From assembly GCA_965215515.1 (NCBI GenBank), contig OZ244057.1:1440001-1504000 (forward strand): 64,000 bases of DNA, read 5' to 3'. This DNA is from Oligoflexales bacterium. GTDB lineage: Bacteria > Bdellovibrionota_B > Oligoflexia > Oligoflexales > JAPPIL01. Numbering within the stretch: position 1 is the stretch's first letter; the number at the start of each line of letters is the position of its first letter. Positions 51,027-51,053 of the stretch are shown one piece after another. Under the pieces are notes generated by a model. That model had not been told where the DNA came from and searched no databases. It saw nothing but the letters and a program-made list of their open reading frames with translations. The translations under genes were made by a program, and so were the position numbers.

Positions 51027-51053
51027 TCATCGGCGTTTTTTTTTTTCACTTTA
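51027..51053 (-). promoter_or_regulatory. sigma28 promoter with an A11 homopolymer spacer
   Basis: TAAA-GTG-A11-C-GCCGATGA = TAAA-N15-GCCGATGA, 1 mismatch from consensus. Confidence 0.7.

Follow-up and report, generated by a model that had tools for sequence, protein, structure and literature searches.

A length-variable poly-A tract forms the spacer of a sigma28-type promoter family upstream of giant modular prepilin genes in an Oligoflexales bacterium

We analysed a 64,000-nucleotide (nt) stretch of an Oligoflexales bacterium genome (assembly GCA_965215515.1, contig OZ244057.1, positions 1,440,001 to 1,504,000 of the forward strand; hereafter the window), focusing on a run of 11 adenines (A11) within a sigma28-type promoter, where it makes up most of the spacer; the gene immediately downstream encodes a giant modular type IV prepilin. 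The initial annotation had proposed that this tract is a possible phase-variation switch. The phenomenon is considerably larger than that annotation recognised, which overlooked the multigene family, the similar spacers before lipoprotein-like genes and the missing flagellum. The promoter belongs to a multigene family in which polymorphism is concentrated in the tract, tract-free promoters of the same type prefer a spacing of 15 or 16 nt, and poly-A spacers are restricted to a single family within the order. The phase-variation interpretation of the A11 tract is thereby partly supported, and we consider it moderately probable that the full mechanism is a sigma28-wired, slipped-strand contingency system that sets the expression of pilins and lipoproteins.

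The promoter lies on the minus strand, 19-45 nt 5' of the prepilin start. Its parts and surroundings are listed below.

51046..51053, minus strand: -35 octamer TAAAGTGA with its TAAA core at 51050-51053, read from the sequence and kept in the cassette copies
51036..51046, minus strand: A11 homopolymer, the bulk of the promoter spacer, read from the sequence
51027..51034, minus strand: -10 octamer GCCGATGA, read from the sequence; copies have GCCGATGA or GCCGATGG, and one has GACGATGA
51019..51021, minus strand: predicted transcription start, placed by the 6-8 nt that usually separate a sigma28 -10 element from the start
50985..51018, minus strand: predicted 5' untranslated region (5'UTR), with an A7 run (50990-50996) followed by a purine-rich, Shine-Dalgarno-like AAGGGAAG, read from the sequence
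48309..50984 (or 50981), minus strand: giant modular prepilin gene, 890-891 amino acids (aa), from the open reading frame (ORF) and profile matches
51093..51102, no strand assigned: perfect 10-bp palindrome GCAATATTGC, at a distance of about 40 nt on the 5' side of the -35 element; 12 of the 13 cassette copies in the alignment keep it

In the direction of transcription, TAAA (51053-51050) is followed by GTG (51049-51047), the A11 tract (51046-51036), a single C (51035) and GCCGATGA (51034-51027). The spacer between TAAA and GCCGATGA (GTG, A11 and C) is 15 nt long, and the tract fills 11 of these 15 positions. The Escherichia coli sigma28 consensus is given as TAAAGTTT-n11-GCCGATAA in table 1 of PMC2859248; the -35 octamer TAAAGTGA agrees with it at 6 of 8 positions and the -10 octamer GCCGATGA at 7 of 8. 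The 11 nt between the two octamers (15 from TAAA to the -10 element) equal the consensus spacing, which occurs in 3 of the 15 copies of the family. The sequence thus bears out the element as originally described, TAAA-GTG-A11-C-GCCGATGA with a 15-nt spacer. Also supported is the further claim that a sigma28-type promoter, with the tract as its spacer, directly precedes the giant prepilin gene, and FliA and FlgM genes are present. A11 was correctly singled out as the longest homopolymer of the window: it is the sole run of at least 9, and the next longest is 8. Taken by itself, neither part is exceptional. TAAA-N15-GCCGAT occurs once against 0.16 expected (at least one match in 15 of 100 shuffles) and A11 once against 0.05 expected (4 of 100 shuffles). 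The motif alone or the tract alone is mildly unusual, and it is the genome-wide recurrence of the whole element, 15 times, that is decisive.

Other readings of this region were tried and set aside. No sigma70-like promoter was detected in 50000-52000, and by eye the TTGCAA...TAAAGT combination has a spacer of just 6 nt. A sigma54 reading fails by eye as well: TGGCAA occurs in some copies without TTGC at the proper distance, and the GG is absent from the window copy. The plus-strand T11 was rejected as a terminator, there being no stem 5' of it in the 50000-52000 interval examined. Rfam families gave no match in 50500-51500; a long non-coding RNA model (E = 0.14, 18.6 bits against a gathering score of 60) was taken as a chance match. 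The upstream palindrome GCAATATTGC is possibly a site for a dimeric regulator.

The gene behind this promoter encodes a prepilin of unusual size. Its ORF (48309..51008) opens with LFLAKKREVVRTKAGLSLVELMVAV; a purine-rich AAGGGAAG directly precedes two GTG codons, and we therefore place the start at GTG 50984 or, more likely, 50981. The product has a class III signal, with the leader M(V)RTKAG followed by LSLVELMVAVAVIGIL (LSLVELM) and Glu at +5. Its prepilin methylation motif matches PF07963 at 22.1 bits (cut-off 21.2) and TIGR02532 at 20.8 bits (cut-off 16.3). The remaining ~700 residues consist of Pro/Thr linkers and Cys-rich C-terminal modules without a Pfam match. The genome encodes one prepilin peptidase (Peptidase_A24, 80.7 bits) and contains 8 matches to T2SSE-type ATPases. 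Protein Atlas clusters nearest to the pilin are generic prepilin clusters with scores of at most 0.87, which we treat as a lead only.

The element recurs throughout the genome (G000), which is a single 2,180,710-bp contig with 52.6% GC and 93.9% completeness recovered from metagenomes. Fifteen sites match TAAAG[TC][GA]-A(n)-CG[CA]CGATG. Fourteen of them run into the same 5'UTR and prepilin N-terminus, and the 15th, G000:2088608, stands before a different gene. The repeated unit extends well into the coding region:

50445..51120, minus strand: cassette of ~75 nt 5' of the tract, promoter, 5'UTR and approximately the first 180 codons, present in 14 copies in the genome that are 92-98% identical outside the tract

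With the 251 nt around the tract as a DNA query, we recovered partial matches and 12 additional ones over the full length, the latter at 92-98% identity. The pilin paralogs comprise 11 intact ORFs of 582-1197 aa and three truncated ones (43, 82 and 145 aa). Their N-terminal 180-300 residues are 90-99% identical and their C-termini are mosaic, with 45-79% identity over partial coverage. The ratio of nonsynonymous to synonymous substitution rates (dN/dS) between paralogs lies at 0.1-0.4 for the N-terminus and at 0.5-0.7 for the variable regions. In off-spacing copies, 600-1100 codons remain open; because of these long frames and dN/dS values below 1, such copies are not simply decaying. Open frames of this kind would be easier to explain if the copies were occasionally expressed, dN/dS not being decisive on function.

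Two further features of the family concern recombination and a second type of repeat. Remnants at G000:417875, 419290 and 1920838 have in common with the cassette its upstream region and TAAAGTG-A7; beyond this they read CGCTAGAG... and lack both a -10 box and a pilin. As all three diverge right after TAAAGTG-A7, a recombination breakpoint falls at the tract. The proline-rich linker of two pilin paralogs contains a run of C on the coding strand, C11 at G000:1600130-1600140 and C10 at G000:1873530-1873539, and the C11 paralog is split into frames of 145 aa and ~720 aa. The linker run could be either a second, translational slippage switch or the mark of a pseudogene.

Within the cassette, tract length changes fastest. 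Across the 15 copies it is A8 in two, A9 in four, A10 in six and A11 in three, the window copy among the last; the spacers therefore measure 12-15 nt, none exceeding 15. In two copies an A replaces the G before the tract, which lengthens the physical run by one, and one of these has GACGATGA as its -10 element. An alignment of 13 copies is almost invariant over the ~75 nt upstream, the -35 and -10 elements, the 5'UTR and the first codons, with the tract present in four lengths. The A7 run 40 nt 3' of the tract is the same in all 13 aligned copies and is A8 in the 14th (G000:240128). Tract length differs in each of the five closest paralog pairs, which have 2-5 differences per 250 flanking nt. 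A recent 1436-nt duplicate has accumulated 9 substitutions and 3 indels, namely one A in the tract and two 3-nt units of a GGCGTT-type repeat. The sister species G001 shows the same pattern: its four short-pilin paralogs read CTT-A8-GCTAATGGC-A(n)-CGCCGAACTG, in which A8 is invariant and n is 10, 9, 9 and 10, and two of them have A10 and A9 tracts followed by 60 identical nt. The four lengths among 15 copies, the differing closest pairs and the indel in the 1436-nt duplicate mark tract length as the character of this element that changes fast, and to that extent support the initial interpretation.

Poly-A spacers are not confined to the pilin cassette. The genome has 24 A/T runs of at least 10, of which 18 are intergenic. 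Judged by eye from their contexts, 17 of these 18 have a CGAT core within a few nt on the 3' side and a TAAA- or TAAG-like element on the 5' side; a stricter regular expression finds both boxes at 13 of the 18. Examples outside the cassette include TAAAGC-A9, TAAAGC-A14 and TTAAAG-A15, with spacers of 13-18 nt, and these promoters precede genes with lipoprotein-like signal peptides and one diverged pilin (G000:1343646). Poly-A promoters present as single copies lie at G000:735123 (A14), 420626 (A15), 326400 (A10), 5025 (A9) and 1343646 (A10). The pattern A9-CGNCGA occurs 15 times in G000 (once in the reversed control), 8 times in G001, 3 times in G002 and 10 times in G003. In 57 other genomes of the order it occurs only four times, in three genomes. 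The poly-A-spacer trait is thus present in all four genomes of the family and near background in the 57 others of the order. Of the regions upstream of 30 pilin-like genes in G001-G003, 15 contain an uninterrupted A9 or A10 tract as spacer. The exact promoter pattern had no match in public metagenome and genome contig collections, from which its own genome may have been left out. Relaxing the pattern to A9-CGMCGATG yielded 109 loci from unrelated taxa; these we took as chance and did not use. Other long intergenic homopolymers lie outside a sigma28 context: a C23 run (G000:377355-377377) and a G13 and an A13 run ~100 nt apart (G000:1036101-1036231).

The presumed cognate sigma factor is encoded in the window itself:

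7131..7949, plus strand: FliA/WhiG-family sigma-28 gene (TIGR02479, 274.3 bits against a cut-off of 189.6; NF005413, 262.5 bits against 201)

FlgM is also encoded in the genome (39.4 bits, cut-off 25). A search of the genome found no flagellin, FlhA, FliP or rod proteins; flagellar traces are limited to a weak FliG_C match (24.3 bits) and a FliO-like ORF beside fliA. With the flagellar genes that were searched missing, any control by FliA at this promoter would therefore not be flagellar. In a sample of 61 genomes of the order, 49 have flagellin (none of the four of this family) and 58 have FliA above its cut-off (all four of this family). The Protein Atlas clusters nearest to FliA are labelled Thermodesulfobacteriota and Bdellovibrionota, again a lead only. 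The FliO-like ORF (297 aa, window 6114-7007, plus strand) lies just 5' of fliA, matches FliO weakly at 34.9 bits, and may be a remnant of a lost flagellar operon.

The spacing that this sigma factor would prefer can be read from promoters that lack a tract. The two-box pattern TAAA-N12..19-[GAT][CT]CGAT[AG] has 63 of its 221 matches in intergenic DNA, which makes up ~9.5% of the genome, a 3-fold enrichment with a sharp N15/16 peak. For 44 intergenic, tract-free TAAA-N12..19-xCCGAT motifs the spacing is N15 in 14, N16 in 14 and any other value in 16. Genes behind the N15/16 sites encode an M4 protease, a trypsin-like protease, an SLT transglycosylase, dockerin and ankyrin proteins, and many proteins of unknown function. 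Pilin genes in other genera and families of the order have TAAAG...N15/16...CGAT or CCGAA boxes around spacers of unrelated sequence. In G001 and G002, all four tract-free or interrupted long-pilin promoters have, by eye, a spacer of 16. A second sigma28-like motif in the window, TAAAGTTT-N11-ACCGATGC (48202-48228, minus strand), has a spacer of 15 without a homopolymer. It overlaps the listed GTG start of the gene at 46522-48213, which encodes ankyrin repeats, a dockerin domain and a FlgD-Ig/T9SS (type IX secretion system)-type C-terminal tail; the true start of that gene must be further downstream.

In the slipped-strand mechanism that we favour, A11 would be the spacer of a FliA-type promoter that drives a giant modular type IV prepilin and belongs to a 5' cassette common to 14 paralogs. 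Replication slippage in the uninterrupted poly-A would add or remove single A's, moving the -35/-10 spacing by 1 nt at a time. FliA-RNA polymerase would need the boxes ~15-16 nt apart, and ~24 promoters would each drift independently around this optimum; at the time of sampling, three pilin genes (A11) stood at 15 nt and 11 at 12-14 nt. The transcription of each paralog would be raised or lowered independently, so that the displayed pilins, together with similarly wired lipoproteins, would vary from cell to cell. FliA, restrained by FlgM, would act as the common on-signal and was apparently kept in this flagellum-less lineage for surface and secreted proteins. Within this mechanism we infer dependence on FliA, an effect of tract length on expression, the ON length, and the rate and reversibility of switching. 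More tentatively, it is possible that the whole family has rewired its flagellar sigma factor in this way, with about two dozen poly-A sigma28 promoters per genome and cells that differ in their adhesive tips, for example towards different surfaces, hosts or prey. The 5' end of mutL contains a G9 run (G000:1383966-1383974), in codons 6-8 or directly before an alternative GTG start. Slippage in it could modulate mismatch repair itself, and might in that way tune the switching rate.

As independent data we used metagenome contigs, with four runs placed on 50400-51700. These contigs break inside the ~250-nt repeat: contig depth climbs from ~19 to ~400 (~20-fold) in the cassette, and none of the listed contigs spans 50400-51700. 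In three samples from one study the tract occurs at the reference length, one A shorter (-1; 4-7 contigs per run) and two A's shorter (-2; 1 contig per run); none of these contigs can be assigned to the window locus. Several tract lengths therefore exist in independent data. A similar break is seen in the fragmented relative G003 (contigs C45, C100, C225 and C239), where a contig ends no more than 100 nt away from 4 of the 10 poly-A promoter matches, which suggests that repeated cassettes break short-read assemblies.

Several observations weigh against a switch. The -1 and -2 contigs can all be explained by the paralogs themselves, and paralog comparisons yield relative and not absolute rates of tract change. 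The sole locus that can be compared between two studies, G000:2088608, placed by its unique flanks in run X5 of the second study, is A10 as in the genome. MutS and MutL are both encoded, and tracts of A8-A11 may accordingly slip slowly. In each of the four genomes of the family A10, which gives a spacer of 14, is the commonest tract. It follows that 11 may not be the ON length and that tract length may act by degrees instead of all-or-none; either A-tract spacers work best at a length other than 15, or the majority of copies are silent or weakly expressed. The mismatch-repair genes, the locus of equal length in two studies and the shared A10 would fit a real promoter without a switch, in which the poly-A is a lineage-specific structural spacer (such as a rigid A-tract) with A10 as its preferred length, and A8-A11 change slowly and are effectively fixed. 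Levels would then differ constitutively between paralogs, few being expressed and the rest weak or held in reserve for recombination. The tracts, at 8-11, are short next to those of the mycoplasma vlp genes, which are roughly A17-20, and both A8 copies belong to the truncated set (43 and 145 aa), as expected for decaying silent copies. There is also a precedent in Mycoplasma agalactiae, where the vpma T-tract beside the promoter is described as one that does not switch (PMC2268961). Against a fixed spacer, near-identical paralogs differ in tract length in two species while the neighbouring A7 and A8 runs stay constant. Tract purity has been kept at ~40 sites in four genomes (15 + 8 + 3 + 10 A9-CGNCGA matches) though the flanks have diverged, and the A9 and A10 copies hold ORFs of ~1000 codons open with dN/dS below 1. 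On balance we regard a fixed structural spacer as somewhat unlikely.

Two further explanations would remove either the variation or the promoter. If all copies really had the same length, the differences would be sequencing or assembly errors at homopolymers. A single 2.18-Mb contig from metagenomes suggests long reads, runs of 8-11 are error-prone on some platforms, and the relatives G001 and G002 are likewise near-closed assemblies. Frameshift signatures are nevertheless not in excess: an indel would extend an ORF by at least 100 aa at 34 of 1424 homopolymers of at least 7 (2.4%) and at 63 of 3000 random sites (2.1%), and there is therefore no surplus at homopolymers. The neighbouring A7 and A8 runs are called alike in the aligned copies, the k-mer contigs of three other samples hold the reference, -1 and -2 versions at substantial depth, and G003, fragmented and presumably assembled from short reads, also shows A9, A10 and A11. 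We therefore consider error very improbable as the source of the differences. Another view takes TAAAG..A(n)..CGCCGATG not as a sigma28 promoter but as another conserved signal of the cassette, for example a site for a regulator or a hotspot of recombination or gene conversion, with transcription starting elsewhere. The three remnants that diverge after TAAAGTG-A7 show that the tract also marks a recombination breakpoint, and a conserved palindrome lies further upstream. This view must contend with two octamers that fit the consensus (6/8 and 7/8), with the same two boxes at N15-16 before pilins with unrelated spacers in other genera and families, with the 3-fold intergenic enrichment and its N15/16 peak, with the empty search for sigma70-like sites in 50000-52000, and with the retention of FliA and FlgM without a flagellum. 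It seems to us improbable.

The slipped-strand reading has clear precedents. Promoter-spacer repeats that switch surface proteins are textbook knowledge for mycoplasmas, Neisseria, Haemophilus and Bordetella, at promoters of the housekeeping sigma factor. Pathogen examples include the poly-C/G tracts of Neisseria opc, porA and fetA, the TA repeat of Haemophilus hif, the poly-C of Bordetella fim and the T-tract rheostat of Helicobacter sabA; in these, as proposed here, one-unit changes in or beside the core promoter grade or switch adhesins and pili. To our knowledge, all of them are sigma70-type promoters of host-adapted pathogens, and most concern single genes. In mycoplasmas, indels in the -35/-10 spacer are described as switching vlp, maa2 and vmm (PMC2268961). 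The closest parallel is vlp of Mycoplasma hyorhinis, where surface proteins are likewise encoded by a multigene family whose members share their 5' region (promoter and signal sequence) and differ in their C-termini, and where a homopolymer between -35 and -10 sets each gene ON or OFF by its length (PMC2268961, citing Citti and Wise 1995). The system proposed here differs from vlp in having a sigma28-type instead of a housekeeping-type promoter, with tracts of A8-A11. It also differs in its products, which are giant type IV prepilins and some lipoproteins, and in its host, an uncultured free-living or predator-like diderm with MutS and MutL.

The use of FliA outside motility also has parallels. 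For Bdellovibrio bacteriovorus, a FliA motif TTAAG-N16-CCGATA is reported in 92 of 140 attack-phase promoters, in front of genes for proteases, surface anchors and unknowns (PMC3627812). The sigma28-like N15/16 motifs described here resemble that regulon in preceding proteases, an SLT transglycosylase, dockerin and ankyrin proteins, and pilins. In reporter assays, FliA drives the flp pilin/TAD (tight adherence) operon of Bdellovibrio-like predators (PMC5430801). Those predators are flagellated, have ordinary spacers, and their pilA is described as not FliA-regulated (PMC5430801), whereas here the flagellar genes searched are missing, the motif stands before type IVa-like pilins and homopolymers form the spacers. 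That spacing matters for a sigma28 promoter is indicated by Helicobacter pylori flaA, whose activity depends on the spacer in a comparison of engineered lengths of 11-15 nt with the wild-type 13 (legend reproduced in PMC5124976); unlike the tracts discussed here, those variants of a flagellin promoter were made by engineering and did not arise by natural slippage. Modular type IV pilins are known as well, for example PilB of Streptococcus sanguinis, in which extra C-terminal modules give the filament adhesive functions (PMC8179133). The prepilins described here share the fusion of a pilin N-terminal module to additional C-terminal modules. They differ from PilB in their length of 582-1197 aa, their Pro/Thr linkers, their Cys-rich modules without a Pfam family and their ~14 paralogs.

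The top-ranked results of a literature search, which did not cover subscription journals, contained no description of a homopolymer switch in a sigma28 promoter and none of phase variation in predatory bacteria. Promoter-spacer slippage as such is already known. Here its spacer-repeat logic is seen on promoters of an alternative sigma factor, sigma28, at ~24 sites in a 2.2-Mb genome and before ~14 giant modular pilins, in a flagellum-less environmental lineage that forms one family of its order. If switching does occur, contingency loci would extend to uncultured environmental bacteria, the orphan FliA/FlgM pair would gain a concrete role, and the system would offer a tractable model of how spacer length gates an alternative-sigma promoter. 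If the rewiring indeed spans the family, phase variation of the type known from pathogens would operate on an alternative sigma factor in a possibly predatory uncultured lineage. For annotation there is a warning: the length of a homopolymer in such a promoter carries biological information, and polishing should not make it uniform.

Elsewhere in the window, the segment 56411-60356 (plus strand) contains a ThcOx-like oxidase/nitroreductase gene followed by a gene for an 868-aa YcaO cyclodehydratase, and is probably an azole-forming peptide-modification locus.

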